64,000 nucleotides of DNA from Kiritimatiellia bacterium (GCA_050949565.1 JBMNFY010000017.1:96001-160000), one strand, 5' to 3'; counted from the stretch's first letter, positions 5,735 through 56,637 are shown. Made by a program: numbers and translations. Notes: generated from the letters alone by a model not told the origin.

Positions 5735-7588
5735 ATGCAGAAAATCTGGATGAGTACGTTGCGGCATTTGACAGTGTGCGGATGCGTCTGGATGGCCGGG
5801 AGTTACGGCTGGGGCGACGCCAACAAGCAACCGGGCGCAACCAAGTCCATCGCTGATTGTCGGTTGGTGACTCAATTCGATGGCGTCGATCTGGCGGAAA
5901 TCGGATGCGAAAAGTTGTTGGCGGACGCCATACGGGCGGGAGCGGAAGCCATTCAGATCGAGCGGTGTGAGTTTCATCTCGATGGCGCGGCGCGGACGAA
6001 TGCGCTCGCAAAGCTTGCCAAGGAAATACGCTTCTTCGAGAAGGCGGGCTTCCCGGTGGCGGTTTGGACCACAACGCTGGGTTACGGCAACATGACAAAT
6101 CCAGACTTTCTGCGGCGCTTCCCGAACTATCGCCCGTTGCGTGCGCTGGAAGGAAACACAGCGGCGGTCTGTGCCACGGATGTCGCCTGCCGTGAGGCGA
6201 TTGCCGAGAATGTGCGTGACTTCATTCGGGCGGGGGCGAAAGTCATTCTCCTCGACGACGATCTCGTTCAAGCGTGCCGTCCCGGTATCTGCTGCGTGTG
6301 CGACGAGCATCTACGGCGCATCGCGGCCCGGCTCGGTGCCACGTCCGTCACAGCAGAACAAATTCGTGATGCCTACGCGGGCGCGCCCAACCCGCTCCGC
6401 ACGGCCTGTGTCGACGTCATGGGAGAGACACTCATGGAGTACGCTCAGGCGATGCGGGCGGCGGCAGATGAGATCGATCCGTCCGTGATGATCGCGACCT
6501 GTCTGAGCGTTTCGCAGTATGACCTCGACGGTGTTGACGTACCGGCACTCGTCCGCCTGCTCGCTGGCAAGGGAACTGACCGTCAGTTCGTGCGCCTGAC
6601 CGGTGCCACATACTGGGTGCGTCATCCCCACAACCTGCGCAATTGGGGACAGGGACTCGGCGGCATCGTTGAGTTCTTGCGGTGGCAGTCCGCGTTGCTC
6701 CATGCCTGTGACATCGTACCGCTGGACGAGAATGATCCTTACCCGCGCGATGTGGGCGTCGTCCCCGAGCAATTATGCGAAGCATACGACCGCGCAGTGA
6801 TTGCCGAAGGGGGCATCGTCCGGAACAAGTACATGATGCGCCACAACGTCAAGACGAACAAGGGCATTGATCCAGAATACCTCGCTGCCCATCTGGCGGG
6901 ACAGGACGAAGCCAAGCGGATCGCCGCGACATTCAAGGATGCCTCCCCTATTGGATTTGAGATATTTGCGCCGCCTCGTCTCGTGCGCGACGCCATCCTG
7001 CCTCAGCCGTATGCCGGCAAACGTGCGCTGGTCAAATTCTTTTCTCATCCGATGGCAGGTGCTTTGCTTGCGTCCAACGGTGCGCCAACGCGCTATGACC
7101 GTGATTCTGGCGCACCGCTGGCAGCGTTTGGACCCGCAGCCGCAACACTGCCGGATGCGTGGTTGACGCGCGGCGTACTGCTCGACCGTGACGGCGCGCA
7201 GACTCTCCAAAAGCGCGGCGTTGATGTGGGGTTGCTCGCGGCGGATGCCCGGAATATCGACGGCTGGCGTCTCTACCAGAATGCGAAGGGCGAGAAGTTC
7301 GCCGTTTCTGAAAAAAGCTGGTACGAGCTTGATTGCAGCGAAGAGACACCGACGGCGGTACCGGTCCGCGAAATTTGGCGCTTCTTCACCGGACAGGAAA
7401 TCCCGATCCGCCTCACAGGCGCGCGCGGCGTGCACCTTTTGGCGAAGCGCCGTCCAGACGGGGCGCTGGCTGTCCTTGTGAACAACATGCGCGAGACAAC
7501 CGCAGGACCGTTTGATATTTTTGTCTCCGGCAAGCCGCGTTCGATGACGTTGAAGGGGTATGGATATGGCGTGGCGGTGGAAAGATAA
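5735..7588 (+). CDS. Secreted hypothetical protein, possibly glycoside-hydrolase-like barrel
   Basis: Long ORF with signal-like N-terminus, ILLDDD and CCVCDEH motifs; family not recognised with certainty. Confidence 0.55.
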   Translation: MQKIWMSTLRHLTVCGCVWMAGSYGWGDANKQPGATKSIADCRLVTQFDGVDLAEIGCEKLLADAIRAGAEAIQIERCEFHLDGAARTNALAKLAKEIRFFEKAGFPVAVWTTTLGYGNMTNPDFLRRFPNYRPLRALEGNTAAVCATDVACREAIAENVRDFIRAGAKVILLDDDLVQACRPGICCVCDEHLRRIAARLGATSVTAEQIRDAYAGAPNPLRTACVDVMGETLMEYAQAMRAAADEIDPSVMIATCLSVSQYDLDGVDVPALVRLLAGKGTDRQFVRLTGATYWVRHPHNLRNWGQGLGGIVEFLRWQSALLHACDIVPLDENDPYPRDVGVVPEQLCEAYDRAVIAEGGIVRNKYMMRHNVKTNKGIDPEYLAAHLAGQDEAKRIAATFKDASPIGFEIFAPPRLVRDAILPQPYAGKRALVKFFSHPMAGALLASNGAPTRYDRDSGAPLAAFGPAAATLPDAWLTRGVLLDRDGAQTLQKRGVDVGLLAADARNIDGWRLYQNAKGEKFAVSEKSWYELDCSEETPTAVPVREIWRFFTGQEIPIRLTGARGVHLLAKRRPDGALAVLVNNMRETTAGPFDIFVSGKPRSMTLKGYGYGVAVER

Positions 7589-7855
7589 AGAAGACAGTCA
7601 TGCCGATCGGTGTAAGCGTGGCGGCGACTACATACGTCAAAAAGAGGTACAAATGAAAAATAGTTCGCGCCGTCCAAATTTCGTGTTTCACGGTTGAGTA
7701 TTGAAAACTAGAGCATGCCGATCCCGATTTCGACACCGATTGCCCCAGAAACACCCAATTCCACCCAGAACGCATAATACGAAATTATCCCTGTGGCATG
7801 GGGTGGCTCAGGTGTGCTAGTATTATCGCGGATTTAACCCGAAGGGAGGATATGT

Positions 7856-50678: not shown

Positions 50679-50819
50679 GATTCCACTGTATCCGACAGAA
50701 CAACGGGCTGTCAATTGCCGGGCGCGATTCGCTCTGCCTTCCCGCTTGACTCAAGATGACGATTCGCGTAAAAAGGTGGCGGATTGTGGGTCGGCGGTTT
50801 CATGGTGGAAGGAGATAAC

Positions 50820-51287
50820 ATGAGGACATGTAAAATCGCAGGGGTTGTCTTGGGTGGGGGATTGGTTTTTTTTGTTCTTTGGGTGTTTCGGCCTTACGAA
50901 AGGGCAGACCCTAGAATGGTTGAGCCGAACCTTAGAGCGCTTGAGGCACCTTACCAAAAAGTCGTAACAACTAGTATTGGTGACGGTGGCAGCATGGGTT
51001 TAAGAATTGTCGATTGTAATGGGAAGGTTTTGGATTTCTGCCTTCCTGCACCTATGGATGAACCTACATTGCGTTATAACAAATTGTTCATGGGGTCCAC
51101 ATATTACACAGAGCCCGGGTCATCAGAAGTGCCAAATGCGCACCACACCAAGCTTCGGCTGGCGGAAATAATCCGTTCTCAAACAAAACCTGACCCAGAA
51201 AACGATGTTTTTGTATATCGCCTGACAGGACGCTGGCGAGACTTATGGGTACATATGATGCGTGAAGATGTCTTTCAGGTCTACTGA
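50820..51287 (+). CDS. Hypothetical membrane-anchored protein, lower GC than its surroundings
   Basis: AGGAG RBS, N-terminal TM helix, visibly AT-richer codons. Confidence 0.7.
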   Translation: MRTCKIAGVVLGGGLVFFVLWVFRPYERADPRMVEPNLRALEAPYQKVVTTSIGDGGSMGLRIVDCNGKVLDFCLPAPMDEPTLRYNKLFMGSTYYTEPGSSEVPNAHHTKLRLAEIIRSQTKPDPENDVFVYRLTGRWRDLWVHMMREDVFQVY

Positions 51288-51392
51288 AGGAACGCTGGAG
51301 AAGCGGGGTCGTGAGAAACGGGCTCGTTGGTGTGTTAACGTATCGCCACGGCAAGGCAACTGTGGTAGAGGAATTATGATGACTAATGGCAA

Positions 51393-51723
51393 CCATGCGG
51401 CCGTTGCCGTCCTGGAAGGGATGGATGAATTCGAACTCGTAGTGGAAGACGCAACTGGCGATGAGCGGGTGTTCCGGCGTGTCTCTGAGCCAGGCCAGAA
51501 GACCGGCGATCAGGGCGGGCACGCGGTCGGCGGGAGGCGCGAGGTGGATGATTGCCGCGCCGCGCTGGATACCGACACCGCCGGAGCGGAAACGCCCCGG
51601 CTCGTCGATCAGACCGGCCATGATGACGCCGTGTGCGGCCAACAGGTCGTCGCGTGAATGGGGCGACCACTCGAACATGCGCTCGTAGGCGGCAAAGGCG
51701 TTGCGGACTTCTTGGATTTCGCG
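51393..51723 (-). pseudogene. Internal fragment of a Fic-family gene
   Basis: REIQEVRNAFAAYE...HYEFEFIHPFQDGNGRM; truncated 5' at the repeat end and 3' just after the Fic motif. Confidence 0.85.
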
Positions 51724-52956
51724 GGAGAAACGGGGTCGTATTTTGACATTAGACAAACAAGGGTCGTGAAAATTTTGGAGTGCGGTGACAAGAACCGCGC
51801 TGTGCGCGGGTCGCGGCACCGCTTTCCCTCCGAGCCGCGCGCGGAGACACTCTTAGTCCTCACTCTTAGTCGAATACACTTAGTCGTTCACACCTAGTCG
51901 ATTGCGCCAGCGACGAAGTGTTTGGACGAAGTGCGGGTCGCGGCACCGCTTTTGCATACACTTGCCACCGCACCCGGTGCTTTGCGGCGCGCGCGGAACC
52001 GCTTGCCGCCGCTCGGGATCTCGAAGGGGAGAAACGGGGTCGTATTTTGACATTAGACAAACAAGGGTCGTGAAAATTTTGGAGTGCGGTGACAAGAACC
52101 GCGCTGTGCGCGGGTCGCGGCACCGCTTTCCCTCCGAGCCGCGCGCGGAGACACTCTTAGTCCTCACTCTTAGTCGAATACACTTAGTCGTTCACACCTA
52201 GTCGATTGCGCCAGCGACGAAGTGTTTGGACGAAGACAAGCGACGAGGTGTAACCGATGAAGTGTTTCGACGAAGTATAGCGACGAAGTGCGGGTCGCGG
52301 TACCGCTTTTGCATACACTTGCCACCGCACCCGGTGCTTTAAAAGCGGCGTCGCGCGGAATACCGCTTGCCGCCGCCAAGTTCTTTCGCCAGACTTGCGG
52401 TCACGCCGCCATCCCGTAAAAATCTCCGCGCCTCTGCGTCTCTGCGTTAAACGTTTTTTAACTCAGAACGCTGAACGTCGAACGCTGAACTCTGAAGTAA
52501 AAAACTCCTTGCCTATAACTCACGCCCAAAGCTATCCCCGCGTTCGGCAAGGACTATCGCACCGAGATCGTCGTACCGAAATTGTAGGTCAGATACGCCC
52601 GTTTCCTCGCGGCATCATAGGTCACGATCCAACGCGCGGGCAACGTCCCGGAGAAACGGGGTCGTATTTTGACATTAGACAAACAAGGGTCGTGAAAATT
52701 TTGGAGTGCGGTGACAAGAACCGCGCTGTGCGCGGGTCGCGGCACCGCTTTCCCTCCGAGCCGCGCGCGGAGACACTCTTAGTCCTCACTCTTAGTCGAA
52801 TACACTTAGTCGTTCACACCTAGTCGATTGCGCCAGCGACGAAGTGTTTGGACGAAGTGCGGGTCGCGGCACCGCTTTTGCATACACTTGCCACCGCACC
52901 CGGTGCTTTAAAAGCGGCGTCGCGCGGAATACCGCTTGCCGCCGCTCGGGATCTCG
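51724..52956 (+). repeat. Three direct copies of a ~300-350 bp composite element (starts 51724, 52028, 52650)
   Basis: Each begins ggagaaacggggtcgtattttgacattagacaaacaagggtcgtgaaaattttggagtgcggtgacaag; the first ~200 bp look identical by eye. Confidence 0.92.
52554..52649 (-). pseudogene. 3' tail of a gene (..GTLPARWIVTYDAARKRAYLTYNFGTTISVR*) cut off by repeat copy 3
   Basis: Protein-like sequence ending in a stop, with no start of its own. Confidence 0.5.
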
Positions 52957-53090
52957 TAATGTGTTCGACCAGTCGTACAACACCGGCGCCATGTCCCCAG
53001 CGCCAACTAAAAACCACAATCTGGCCTCAAACCGTCACGCCCCGGCTGTACATACAGCCTAATTCGGAATCGCGATCACGCCGCACGGCA

Positions 53091-53119: not shown

Positions 53120-53124
53120 CCACT

Positions 53125-53270
53125 CGTACTTTGCACCGGCTATCGGAAGCCCGTGAGAATCGGGCGCGGTCGCGCCGCTGTAATCGGCTACAAGCCCCCG
53201 GATGCCATTTCCTGCTGGGAGAGAAGGCGGGGGCAAGGTCAAGCCGTAAGCCAGAAGACGGGCCGGATGC
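53125..53270 (+). ncRNA. Cobalamin riboswitch
   Basis: GGAAgcccGTGAgAATcgggcgCGGtcgcGCCgCTGTaa...GCCAtT...AGAAGGC...AAGCCAGAAGAC (B12-box-like), upstream of a TonB receptor and ABC transporter; boundaries approximate. Confidence 0.88.
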
Positions 53271-53404
53271 AAGCTGCGGCACTCCTTCGCGCATGAGGAG
53301 CCGAGGCCTGTCGTCCGGCCGTTTCCGGAACTGCTTCTGCTCTCGCCCCTGCGGCCTCATACGTGTTGGCTCTGCCCCAACCTTCGCGTAAGCGGATACG
53401 TATC

Positions 53405-55435
53405 ATGTCTCTGTCTCACCGTTTCACTGCCGCCACATTTGCGGCGTGTCTGGCCGCAACCGGCCTGACCACCCTCGGCCAAACAACCCCCGAGGCCCCG
53501 GAGTCTTCATCGACAGCACCGTCTGTCTCCAACGCCATTCCGCCGATCATCGTGCAGGCCAGCCGGACCGGCAAAACATCGTTGCAAATGCCCGCCTCCG
53601 TGCAGGTCATCACAGCGCGGGAAATCGCCGAATCGGGCTACTCGTCAACGGCGGAAGTGCTCGAAAAGCAGGGCGGCGTTACCCTGCGCACACTCAACAG
53701 CAATCCCGCGCTCACGCAACTTTCGATGCGCGGATTCGGCGAAAGCTCCTTCGGCCGCGTTCTGGTCCTCGTCAACGGCGAACGTCTCAATAATCCTGAC
53801 ATGTCTTCGCCGAGCCTGCTGCGCGTCCCGATGACGTCCATCTCGCGTATCGAGATCGTGCGTGGACCGCAAACCGTACTTCACGGCGACTTCGCCTCGG
53901 CCGGTGTGATCAACATCATCACGGACGACGCAACCGCTGAACAGCAGACCACGCTCGGTGCTTCGGTCGGTGCTTACGACACCTACTCGGCCTTCGTCAA
54001 CACCACGGGCATGTTCGGTGAGGACGGCGTCTCCTACCGCGCCAGCGCGGATTGGGAAAAGTCCGATGGCTATCGCGACAACAGCGATTACGAGACCTAC
54101 CAGTTGAACGCCGCGCTGCGCAAAGATTTCGGCGAGAACCGTTTCCTCTCGCTCTCCACCTTCTACCACGACGCGGAGTACGGCCTGCCGGGCGCGCTCT
54201 CCCGCGAGCGCTATCACAACGCGCCGCGCAGTTCCACCACACCGCGAGACCGCAGTGAGTTGGAGAGTTATGGTATCCGCCTGGGCGGGCGTACGACCGT
54301 GGGTGCCGACGGTATGTTCGATTTGAACGCCACAGCCAGTCGCCGCGAGACCGACAGCCGCTGGCTCAGCGCCACCAGTCAGGCCTTCTACGGCAGTGAG
54401 ATCGATTCATACGCGCTGCAGCCGCAGTACGCACACGACTTACGCATCGCCGGTCACCGCTCGATCCTCACGCTCGGCACCGACCTGCGGTATGATATGA
54501 CTGATTTCTATTCGGATTTCAATTCGCCTTTCTACACCTCGTTGCTTGATTGGGAGTTCAACCGCGCCAGTATCGCCGGCTATGCGCAGAACGAGTTCTT
54601 CTTCACTGATGACCTCTCGCTGACGCTCGGCGGACGAACCGAGTGGTTTGACAACCGCGTCAAGAATGCCGCCTCGACGACCTCCTACAGCAAGCGTGAG
54701 TCGGCCGTTGAAGCCGCCCTGCTCTATCGGCCTACTGAAACCTCCAAGGTCTACGCCAAAGCCGGACGCTTTTACCACGCGCCGTTCATCGACGAGATCT
54801 TCGCAGGCGCAGGCACGCCGAATCTCGCCCTCGCCCCAGAAACCGGTCTCAACCTCGAAATCGGCACGGAGGCCCGCATTGCCAACGAATGGCTGGCCGC
54901 ACTCTCGCTCTATCACATGGACATGGACGACGAGATCTATTACGACCCCGCCGCCTTCCAGAACCGCAACTCGCCGGGCGACACACGCCGCATGGGCCTT
55001 GACGCCGCACTGCGTTGGTCGCGCGATCGGGTCGGCTCCGCCTCGCTCGCTTACAGCGCGGTACGCGCGAAGTTCGATGGCGGCCCGTATGACGATAACC
55101 GCGTGCCGCTCGTACCGACGCATACCATCGGCATCAACGGCGACTATTACTTGCTACACAGTCTCGCGCTCATGGGCGGGGTGCGTCACGTCGCGCGCCA
55201 GTATCTCGGCAGCGACTTCAACAACAGCGCGCGGCCACTCAAGGGCTACACGTTGGTCGATTGCGGCCTGCGGTACGAACCTTCCTTCATCGAGGGTCTG
55301 CGTGTGACGCTGAGCGTCGATAATGTGTTCGGTCGCAACTACTGCGATTACGCCGGCTGGTCTAACTTCAGCGGCGACCATTACTATCCCGGTCGTGGCC
55401 GCTTCTGGAAAGTCGGTGCTACATTCACCTTCTAA
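53405..55435 (+). CDS. btuB: TonB-dependent receptor, probable cobalamin transporter (BtuB-like)
   Basis: Signal peptide, IIVQASR TonB box, MRGFG, IEIVRGP plug, C-terminal Phe; riboswitch upstream. Confidence 0.85.
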   Translation: MSLSHRFTAATFAACLAATGLTTLGQTTPEAPESSSTAPSVSNAIPPIIVQASRTGKTSLQMPASVQVITAREIAESGYSSTAEVLEKQGGVTLRTLNSNPALTQLSMRGFGESSFGRVLVLVNGERLNNPDMSSPSLLRVPMTSISRIEIVRGPQTVLHGDFASAGVINIITDDATAEQQTTLGASVGAYDTYSAFVNTTGMFGEDGVSYRASADWEKSDGYRDNSDYETYQLNAALRKDFGENRFLSLSTFYHDAEYGLPGALSRERYHNAPRSSTTPRDRSELESYGIRLGGRTTVGADGMFDLNATASRRETDSRWLSATSQAFYGSEIDSYALQPQYAHDLRIAGHRSILTLGTDLRYDMTDFYSDFNSPFYTSLLDWEFNRASIAGYAQNEFFFTDDLSLTLGGRTEWFDNRVKNAASTTSYSKRESAVEAALLYRPTETSKVYAKAGRFYHAPFIDEIFAGAGTPNLALAPETGLNLEIGTEARIANEWLAALSLYHMDMDDEIYYDPAAFQNRNSPGDTRRMGLDAALRWSRDRVGSASLAYSAVRAKFDGGPYDDNRVPLVPTHTIGINGDYYLLHSLALMGGVRHVARQYLGSDFNNSARPLKGYTLVDCGLRYEPSFIEGLRVTLSVDNVFGRNYCDYAGWSNFSGDHYYPGRGRFWKVGATFTF

Positions 55436-55740
55436 TGTGGGCGAAGCCCGCAACCCAATTCAATCTCACACAAAGGATTAACATGATTTGGAGGGCGAGT
55501 GTCCCCACGAGCCGCCGGGGCGCGGCAATGGAGGGCGAGTATCCCCACGAGCCGCCTTCCGTGCATAGCGCGGAGGGAAAGCGGTGCCGCGACCCGCGCG
55601 TAGCGCGGCTCTTGTCACCGCACTCCAAATTGTGTGCGTCCAGTTCTGTGGGCGGCGTAACCGCCGCCGGGCAAGCAGACGCTTGCCCCTCCCAGGGCTC
55701 CGCAAGCAATGAAACCAGAAACCGGAAACCAGAAACCAGC
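55432..55740. repeat. Repeat mosaic between btuB and btuF
   Basis: ctaatgtgggcgaagcccgc, two ggagggcgagt.tccccacgagccg copies, an inverted gagtgcggtgacaag unit, four gaaacc(a/g) heptamers. Confidence 0.8.
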
Positions 55741-55752
55741 CAATGGCGGCGC

Positions 55753-56637
55753 GTGGTTGCATGCTGGCTGGTGGTAGCGCTGTCGACGCTGACGGCCTGC
55801 ATCCGGCAAGACCCCCTGCCCGCCGACAGTGGCATGCGGCTGGTCTCGACCGCCCCCCACCTGACCGAGTGCGTGTGCGCGATCGGCGCGGGGCACCTTC
55901 TGGTCGGACGCACGGCGACCTGCGACTACCCGCCGGAGGTTGTGAGCGAAATTCCCATCACCGGCGACTTCGCCGTCCCGTGGCTCGAGCCCCTGCTTGC
56001 CGTCCGCCCCACGCATGTTCTGGAAACCGTGCTTTCCGATCCCGCGCTCCGCGACCGGCTCACGGCGCTGAACATCCCGGTGGTGCATGTGCCCTGCACG
56101 CGGCTCGATCAAATCCCCGATGCGCTCCGCCAGCTTGGTGTGCTCTGCGACCGCTCAACACGCGCAAATCAATTGGCAGACGATATCCAGAGTGGTATCG
56201 AACGCGCGCGCCAAGCGGCCTCTTCATACCAGGCCCGCCCGCGCGTGCTGTTGCTCTTCGCGCCGGATGTCTCTATCACCGCCGGGCCTAACGCCTTTGT
56301 CACCACTCTGCTCGAACTCGCGGGCGGCGTCAGCGTCGGGCACGATCTTGAGGCCGATTACCCGCGTGTCTCACTCGAATGGATCATCGCGCAAGACCCG
56401 GACCTGCTACTCTGCATCTTTGAAACCACGCTCCCGCCGCTGGAAGTTTACGCCCGACAGACCGGCTGGCGCTCCCTGCGCGCCGTGCGTTCCGGCCGCG
56501 TCTACACGGTCACCGATCTGAACACCGTCAGCCGACCCGGCCCGCGTGTGCTAGACGGGATCGCACAAATCAAAGTGGTCCTAGATCAAGACGCCGAACG
56601 ATTCGCCAAACAGTCCCCTACTCCGGATCGCCCATGA
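55753..56637 (+). CDS. btuF: Cobalamin ABC transporter substrate-binding lipoprotein (BtuF-like); start codon uncertain
   Basis: LTAC lipobox, RLVSTAPHLTE, LVGRTATCDYP, SLEWIIAQDPD, SRPGPR. Confidence 0.8.
   Translation: MVACWLVVALSTLTACIRQDPLPADSGMRLVSTAPHLTECVCAIGAGHLLVGRTATCDYPPEVVSEIPITGDFAVPWLEPLLAVRPTHVLETVLSDPALRDRLTALNIPVVHVPCTRLDQIPDALRQLGVLCDRSTRANQLADDIQSGIERARQAASSYQARPRVLLLFAPDVSITAGPNAFVTTLLELAGGVSVGHDLEADYPRVSLEWIIAQDPDLLLCIFETTLPPLEVYARQTGWRSLRAVRSGRVYTVTDLNTVSRPGPRVLDGIAQIKVVLDQDAERFAKQSPTPDRP

Follow-up and report, generated by a model that had tools for sequence, protein, structure and literature searches.

Results and Discussion

A three-copy array with one sharp end

The 64,000-nt stretch of a Kiritimatiellia bacterium analysed here (GCA_050949565.1 JBMNFY010000017.1:96001-160000, called the window in the following, with all positions counted from its first letter) contains three direct copies of a repeat on its minus strand, with a unit of 300-350 nt, at window 51724-52023, 52028-52376 and 52650-52956. 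The copies share one end, which abuts pieces of different truncated genes, and this end leads to a family of termini that flank a transposase gene of the TIRtron/TIRYT class elsewhere in the same genome. The genome holding the window is called G000 and its contigs are given as C-numbers, while L-numbers denote fetched loci or metagenome contigs; G004 is a sister genome. The array and the elements next to it are the following.

51297..51327, minus strand: degenerate fourth end, consisting of the tail and the outer 8 nt of the core (GGAGAAGC-GGGGTCGT on the plus strand); repeat family D3, 51293-51312
51328..51399, plus strand: left-end leader of the family and the first 8 codons (MMTNGNHA) of a small open reading frame (ORF) that is complete in G004; 94% identical to L028 6956-7027
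51393..51723, minus strand: fragment of a Fic-domain gene, residues 80-189 of 256
51724..52023, minus strand: copy 1, 300 nt, with the composite repeat body, core 51732-51755 and tail 51724-51731
52024..52027, minus strand: four filler bases (cctt) that separate copy 2 from the beginning of copy 1
52028..52376, minus strand: copy 2, 349 nt including a 62-nt insertion, with core 52036-52059 and tail 52028-52035
52377..52553, minus strand: stretch of the abundant short repeats of the genome, with hundreds of partial matches
52554..52649, minus strand: last 31 codons and stop of a gene for a large beta-strand-repeat protein, the gene body being absent
52650..52956, minus strand: copy 3, 307 nt, with core 52658-52681 and tail 52650-52657

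Each copy ends with a 24-nt core, TGTCTAATGTCAAAATACGACCCC, followed by the 8-nt tail gtttctcc, and beyond the tail there is no similarity among the copies. As a first-pass annotation made from the sequence had described, the continuations differ: copy 1 runs into the middle of the Fic gene, copy 2 is separated by four bases from the start of the neighbouring copy 1, and copy 3 runs into the final 31 codons and the stop of the other gene. About the last 205 nt, as read from the sequence, are identical in all three copies. The repeat finder reported a 260-nt family (D1) with 100% identity between 51724-51983 and 52650-52909, and the corresponding part of copy 2 (52028-52287) is 83% identical to it without gaps, owing to the 62-nt insertion. 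The statement that the opposite ends vary had to be narrowed, as copies 1 and 3 start at one point (cgagatccc...) and copy 2 alone differs. Similarly, the head of the repeat had been called unique to the array, which is correct for the exact 49-mer with its three matches in G000 and none in 120 other genomes of the family, but not for the last 36-45 nt, as these are part of a repeat family of which G000 has 40 cores. Since the 49-mer is confined to the array, the three copies arose locally from one founder. The exact 41-nt head gave no match in a collection of species-representative genomes.

The end found in the window is composed of about 13 nt resembling the left-end leader of the family, the core with GTAT in place of GTAG, and the tail, and this terminus is fused to the common composite repeat of the genome. 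In the degenerate fourth end a 15-nt partial repeat of the end itself comes next and, as seen by comparison with the counterpart in G004, the rest of the core is deleted. Both gene fragments were confirmed to be in frame with the same repeat-derived ORF (MPRPAHSAV...RPRFS), which we take as chance, with a probability of about 1 in 9 for both frames. Expressed in-frame chimeras were considered and rejected, as 79 N-terminal and 67 C-terminal residues are missing from the Fic piece, which stops inside the active-site motif.

The transposase gene and its family of termini

Allowing up to three mismatches, the core occurs at 40 sites in G000 (18 forward and 22 reverse), and a reversed-pattern control gave no site. 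These sites occur in clusters and in both orientations, and can be grouped into a few types by their inner context and the 8 nt past the core. Two of them enclose the kind of gene that the first-pass annotation had suggested to look for, namely a Y1 transposase gene carrying the same end: an ORF of 351 aa (G000:C8:242526-243578) lies between perfect inverted copies of the 24-bp core at C8:242458(-) and 243575(+), its stop codon being located within the right core. The family thus does have terminal inverted repeats (TIRs), which had been reported as missing and are merely not found within the window. The protein matches Pfam Y1_Tnp (E 1e-11) and has NHYHLL as its HUH motif and SVYIHLNPVR as its tyrosine motif, with H60, H62 and Y120 being invariant across eight homologs. 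Against NCBIfam it scores 53.7 bits with REP_Tyr_transpos, which is below the cut-off of 80 for this family, versus 17.3 bits with IS200.

A profile of the eight homologs compared with the PDB matched DnaA domain IV at profile positions 237-327 (8btg_A, E 1.1e-5; 1j1v_A, E 0.0019), and IS200-type transposases in the PDB were matched only at E 0.17-0.5. A PDB search with the single 351-aa protein gave no hits, so DnaA was reached via the profile only, and Pfam Bac_DnaA_C was found weakly in one of the eight homologs (E 0.058). This architecture leads to the TIRtron/TIRYT class, which was named by Di Nocera et al. 2013 (PMC3733652). According to Quentin et al. 2018 (PMC6006769) TIRYTs belong mostly to TnpA-Y1 subclass 2.1 and have DnaA_C-like C-terminal domains, the C-terminal helix-turn-helix domains in this subclass being of the kinds DnaA_C, HTH_23 or HTH_28. 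The relevant sections of both papers describe TIRYTs and TIRtrons from genome surveys, without biochemistry. Within the library searched, no works other than these two name the class (three records).

The linkage of transposase and core is found across genera. Cores are present on both sides of the homologs in G006 (96% identical in amino acids) and G009:C235 (72%), and for the homolog in G007 (72%) one core was found, 5' of the gene. Between G000 and G006 a unit of 1,149 bp is 97.4% identical, with dissimilar flanks, and genes shared by the two genomes are about 80-83% identical, which looks like transfer of the unit rather than strict vertical descent. The conserved unit extends 8 nt past the left core and ends at the right core. 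Gene-less derivatives with internal deletions exist as short units that retain both ends, their cores being 136-230 nt apart. A diverged core with three mismatches also lies beside a weaker Y1_Tnp match (E 4.4e-4) in an ORF of 425 aa (G000:C9:27891-28664, L017), and this locus may be a second, older element of the class.

The core in the window and the TIRs of the transposase gene are identical at 23 of 24 positions. Most copies have GTAG within the core (GGGGTCGTAG) and the three window copies GTAT. The tail gtttctcc is common to other solo ends, and 35 nt match C8:40806-40995 at 97%. Judged from these similarities, the window ends are diverged, solo left-type termini of a member of the TIRtron family. 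A repetitive extragenic palindrome (REP) of the hairpin type had also been considered and was rejected: when six stretches of 61 nt were folded as DNA on both strands, their z values compared to shuffled sequences were between -0.58 and +1.54, with no stable fold on either strand.

Breakpoints at a fixed distance from the core

In order to see how the ends behave elsewhere we scanned 107 core sites, from G000 and 43 loci from relatives, for tandem repeats with a period of 6-699 that touch a core. The scan allows few mismatches and missed several arrays that had been found by eye, and in partial units the boundary was counted from the original core. Seventeen tandem arrays touch a core, one of them upstream and without including the core itself, and the other 16 contain the tail. 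In all 16 the outer boundary lies 9-11 nt beyond the core, whereas the inner boundary is variable and can be found within the tail, within the core, 6-31 nt upstream or up to 634 nt upstream. One-endedness, proposed at first for the window, is therefore general. Microhomology at the new joint amounts to 0 nt in seven arrays, 1 nt in four and 3-6 nt in five. A duplication of 255 nt at C17:961k, which was missed by the scan, stops at +8. Short units of 15-16 nt starting at CGACCCC were found at window 51297-51327 and at C15:513, L028, L074 and L087, and this recurring start hints at a possible second preferred break inside the core.

Gene fragments and deletions at the end

The Fic fragment (Pfam Fic, E 8.1e-17) has a DNA identity of 99.1% to an intact gene of 256 aa in G004 and breaks off just after GNGRM of the active-site motif. 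In G004 the intact gene sits between dprA and a gene for an outer-membrane protein, and these neighbours are 84-88% identical to their G000 counterparts, which are located elsewhere in G000. Because the Fic sequences are so much more similar than their differently arranged neighbours, the comparison (L027:2917-3687 of G004 and window 51393-51725) suggests that the Fic gene itself was transferred recently. A tblastn search of G000 gave no other pieces of this gene, the further hits being Fic-family paralogs with 23-34% identity. At the 5' junction the tail and the Fic gene have just 'cc' in common, and the intact gene reads ...gcgcc|ccgcgaaatcc at the breakpoint. The suspected CTCC or TCC target was therefore rejected, these letters being part of the 8-nt tail of the element as found on related ends throughout the genome. 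The 3' junction (51393-51399) shows a 7-nt microhomology (CCATGCG) to the start of the small ORF which follows the left-end leader in G004.

The 31 codons next to copy 3 match the C-terminus of an 810-codon open frame (counted from stop to stop) at C17:432774-435206 with 77% identity, and this paralog was all that was found in G000 for the body of the truncated gene. Similar fusions exist at other sites. On contig C1 of G004 an end of the family runs at +8, with 0 nt microhomology, into the middle of a gene of which G000 has an intact version (C17:525575), and on contig C8 of G000 another end abuts the stub of an ORF with a signal peptide. The adjacent deletion that the first-pass annotation had offered as one possibility was found in L088, a metagenome contig of the same strain: it is 100% identical to the window on both sides, and position 50954, inside ORF167 (see below), is joined straight to 52649. 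The deletion comprises 1,694 bp with 1 nt of microhomology, and one of its endpoints is the last base of the tail gtttctcc. L088 is the derived form, since ORF167 is uninterrupted in G000 and a full-length paralog of it exists. In contig L087, which comes from a 93% relative, the head leads into a series of partial units that belong to different subfamilies and end at their own tails.

Occurrence in independent samples and copy number

Words of the stretch occur in 19 runs from 13 studies of bioreactor, wastewater and digester metagenomes. Contigs from four runs of four studies, one of which could be the sample behind the window assembly, cover 51110-51753 and about 52455-52678 without any difference and reach 29-30 nt into the repeat, which is the limit for such contigs. 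The Fic junction and the gene-tail junction are therefore present in independently sequenced samples of four studies. The junction between copy 2 and copy 1 is seen in this assembly alone, as the bins at 51988-52135 are uncovered, and hence uninformative, in all four runs. Using the 41-nt head we also found the public metagenome contigs L087-L090. L089 represents a two-copy form in which the Fic fragment is joined to copy 2, followed by the gene tail and copy 3, with no copy 1, and in the one-copy form L090 a single copy lies between the upstream flank of copy 3 and Fic. L090 arose by recombination or is a short-read assembly with collapsed repeats. Taken together, L089, L090 and the uncovered junction of copy 2 and copy 1 mean that the copy number either differs between samples or is overstated in the present assembly.

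Model and alternative explanations

We propose that the array results from one-ended joining or adjacent deletion at the TIRYT nick site of a TIRtron terminus, and give this reading a probability of roughly 0.6. The membership of the ends in the family, the linkage of transposase and core across genera, the fixed outer breakpoint and one anchored deletion are directly seen; that the transposase binds the core, where and on which strand it nicks, and how the ends are joined is inferred from these junctions. The transposase would be supplied in trans by the intact copy on C8, would bind the core as double-stranded DNA and would nick outside the GGGG tip at a distance of about 8-10 nt. It is established for the HUH superfamily that the enzyme keeps hold of the 5' side at a nick, and because of this the strand to which the enzyme would stay linked should be the one reading 5'-GGAGAAAC-GGGGTCGT..., which is the plus strand of the window. 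The enzyme-linked end would then be joined to any free 3'-OH at hand. With a 3'-OH from nascent DNA just upstream a partial tandem duplication would be formed, with a 3'-OH further along the same molecule an adjacent deletion, and with that of other DNA a gene fragment abutting the end. If the opposite side of the nick is extended and then rejoined at a variable distance, the product would be precisely a tandem duplication in which one boundary is fixed and the other variable. Such events, occurring repeatedly together with homologous recombination between the near-identical copies, would have built the array and would keep changing its copy number; that such recombination adds to the copy-number changes is surely the case.

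Nicking and joining is preferred as it is the simplest account of a boundary at a set distance whatever the tail and of mostly homology-free joints, and as it also covers the partial units, the anchored deletion and the fusions to unrelated genes. The full enzymatic version, in which a TIRYT acts on one terminus, binds the TIR with its DnaA-like domain, nicks 8-10 nt outside and joins to any 3'-OH without homology, is put forward only tentatively and would more probably fail than hold in all of its parts. The idea of an HUH-type, one-ended process with adjacent deletions is largely borne out, with the transposase as the putative catalyst.

Several observations weigh against the proposed reading. 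Five of the 16 arrays have 3-6 nt microhomology and would fit template switching equally well, and as the arrays come from related genomes some of them may be inherited rather than independent. The junctions in the window lie at +8 (for copy 1 at +6 to +8, given the overlap of 'cc') and hence slightly inside the +9 to +11 of the arrays, and with GTAT instead of the usual GTAG the window cores could be poor substrates. The 7-nt microhomology join at the 3' side of the Fic fragment needs no transposase and is unrelated to the sharp end. A comparison of five loci with five genomes of the genus yielded no clean pair of filled and empty sites for a solo end or a miniature element. G004 (78% complete) has 26 cores and G023 (99%, 10 contigs) has six, and a full-length TIRYT homolog was not found in either genome with this query, so that the ends may outlive the transposase gene there. 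Finally, the nick site and its strand are predicted from junctions only.

Among the alternatives, an assembly artefact, with the three-copy array or at least its third copy being a repeat mis-join, is very improbable. It would agree with the two-copy and one-copy forms and with a junction of copy 2 and copy 1 that lacks independent support, but the Fic and gene-tail junctions are unchanged in the four runs of four studies and also in L089 and L090, the short-read contigs may themselves have collapsed repeats, and the window sits on a contig of 1.97 Mb. Moreover, one end with several partners would hold even with two copies. More serious, although still unlikely, is that the ends are passive fossils of old insertions of TIR elements, on which the transposase had no further effect and which were later changed by the host through unequal crossing-over between the abundant repeats and through random illegitimate deletions. 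With 205-260 nt of identical sequence the copies are a good substrate for homologous recombination, which would give just such forms as L089 and L090, the region is located between two synteny breaks with G004, and the 3' junction of Fic is a plain microhomology join. What remains unexplained by fossil ends is why independent breaks hit one nucleotide, with three partners in the window, in L088, in G004:C1 and in 16 arrays, and the rest of the Fic gene is nowhere in the assembly.

A protein bound to the core, either the tail of the TIRYT or a host factor, might also act as a replication barrier that stalls forks at a fixed distance, so that the nascent strand switches template by slippage or microhomology-mediated repair and produces duplications, deletions and inserted fragments without any HUH catalysis. 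Such a barrier would explain that the boundary is set by the distance from the core and not by sequence, as the tails vary between subfamilies, and the 3-6 nt microhomology in five of 16 arrays is in line with it. However, the 0-1 nt found in the other 11 of 16 arrays is little for template switching, and the repeated start of the 15-16-nt units at CGACCCC suggests a second specific site over random re-annealing. The single strand has no stable hairpin able to stall a fork alone (z -0.6 to +1.5), and we regard this explanation as quite unlikely. Both fork stalling and host recombination at fossil ends are alternatives that we rate below nicking by a TIRYT.

Comparison with known elements

The element shares with TIRtrons a single HUH/Y1 gene that is nearer to TnpA-REP than to IS200 and has a DnaA_C-like C-terminal helix-turn-helix, long inverted repeats that flank the gene and have a GGGG tip in place of hairpins, and repeats that are also moderately abundant as singles, dimers and clusters. 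It differs in its tip GGGGTCGT, which agrees with the published GGGGWSAS at six of eight positions, although this motif occurs in some published TIRs and is not obligatory (PMC3733652). The TIRtron sections of PMC3733652 and PMC6006769 describe no asymmetric 8-nt tail, no duplications with a fixed boundary, no adjacent deletions and no gene fragments at solo ends. In addition, the window has only solo ends, which are fused to another repeat family.

REP/RAYT systems with their REPINs and BIMEs (Bertels and Rainey 2011, PMC3116915) are similar in having a Y1 enzyme, cognate short repeats inverted around its gene, and repeats dispersed between genes and often clustered. The GTAG tetranucleotide, conserved at one end of REPs, lies inside the core of most copies described here, while the window copies have GTAT. 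The repeat described here, in contrast, is non-palindromic and has no stable hairpin, and the protein is about twice as long. With IS200/IS605 elements such as IS608 and ISDra2 it has in common the HUH/Y1 chemistry, asymmetric ends without target duplication and cleavage at a set distance from the recognised end (PMC6006769). It differs from them by perfect 24-bp inverted repeats, the lack of subterminal hairpins, a protein of 351 aa with an additional DNA-binding domain versus about 130-150 aa, and the lack of a conserved outer flanking tetranucleotide at the ends listed here.

The enzymes of IS91, ISCR and Helitron elements belong to a different HUH class with two tyrosines or a fused helicase. 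The likeness to them is one of behaviour only, with one fixed end, a variable second boundary and the capture of sequence (PMC13181058, PMC4778049). Whereas IS91 and Helitron elements move captured DNA together with the element, we saw no sign that the fragments described here move on. Adjacent deletions are also caused by DDE insertion sequences, one endpoint then coinciding exactly with the terminus of the element while the other varies in its vicinity. They differ in their enzyme class, and the site described here has just a solo end.

Neighbouring features

Two further features adjoin the array.

50784..51287, plus strand: ORF167, encoding a small membrane or secreted protein, in a block with a GC content of 0.46-0.47 versus about 0.60-0.66
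53120..53281, plus strand: cobalamin riboswitch (76 bits, E 6e-18), with synteny to G004 resuming at 53083

The riboswitch precedes a TonB-dependent receptor (53363-55435, plus strand) and a periplasmic binding protein (55435-56637, plus strand) in an ordinary B12-uptake operon, and the repeat array stops about 160 nt short of it. It was the only RNA found in the window with Rfam, with none in the array, and no tRNA or tmRNA was detected in the window. The stretch of short repeats between copy 2 and the gene tail contains an imperfect palindrome, ttttttacttcagag...ctgagttaaaaaa (window 52470-52520, minus strand), which belongs to a family of very abundant short repeats that are found as long tandem arrays at other places in the genome.

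A 73% paralog of ORF167 lies at C17:1146578-1147039. In the interval from the DUF4185 gene to the degenerate left-type end, different small secreted or membrane ORFs of lower GC content occupy the same position in G000 and G004 (in G004 at L028 about 7020-7715), and this swap of ORFs beside the ends looks like a cassette-style replacement. An integron-like cassette comes to mind, as small variable ORFs adjoin the ends and one neighbouring ORF matches Pfam Hfx_Cass5.

The comparison of five loci mentioned above also showed synteny breaks and an indel of 4.25 kb near repeats. The latter is a block with four ORFs without a Pfam family (L001:4287-8533, G000:C8:220286-224532), which lies between two clusters of miniature elements and is missing in G002, two contigs of which show the flanks joined within 6-12 nt; the ends of the indel are off the inverted repeats. 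At L009:4670-5180 (G000:C6) a GC-rich unit of about 200 nt, from another repeat family, is present in three tandem copies that directly abut a truncated miniature element of the family described here.

Conclusion

The element class to which these ends are assigned is known but barely studied, and the new aspects are the anchored one-ended junction pattern and the prediction of a cleavage site that follows from it. If the conservative part of the interpretation alone holds, the window contains an ordinary solo transposon end in a repeat junkyard. If the full enzymatic version is true, Y1 transposases would have a one-ended rearrangement activity that had so far not been described for them, and the junctions would map a TIRYT cleavage site for the first time, possibly along with another one after GGGGTCG(T) in the core. 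The junctions give a testable prediction of the cut position and strand of TIRYTs. Solo ends without a transposase gene nearby may stay hot spots at which neighbouring DNA is duplicated, deleted and fused, and this would account for part of the mosaic repeat arrays and gene stubs that are common in repeat-rich genomes of uncultured bacteria.

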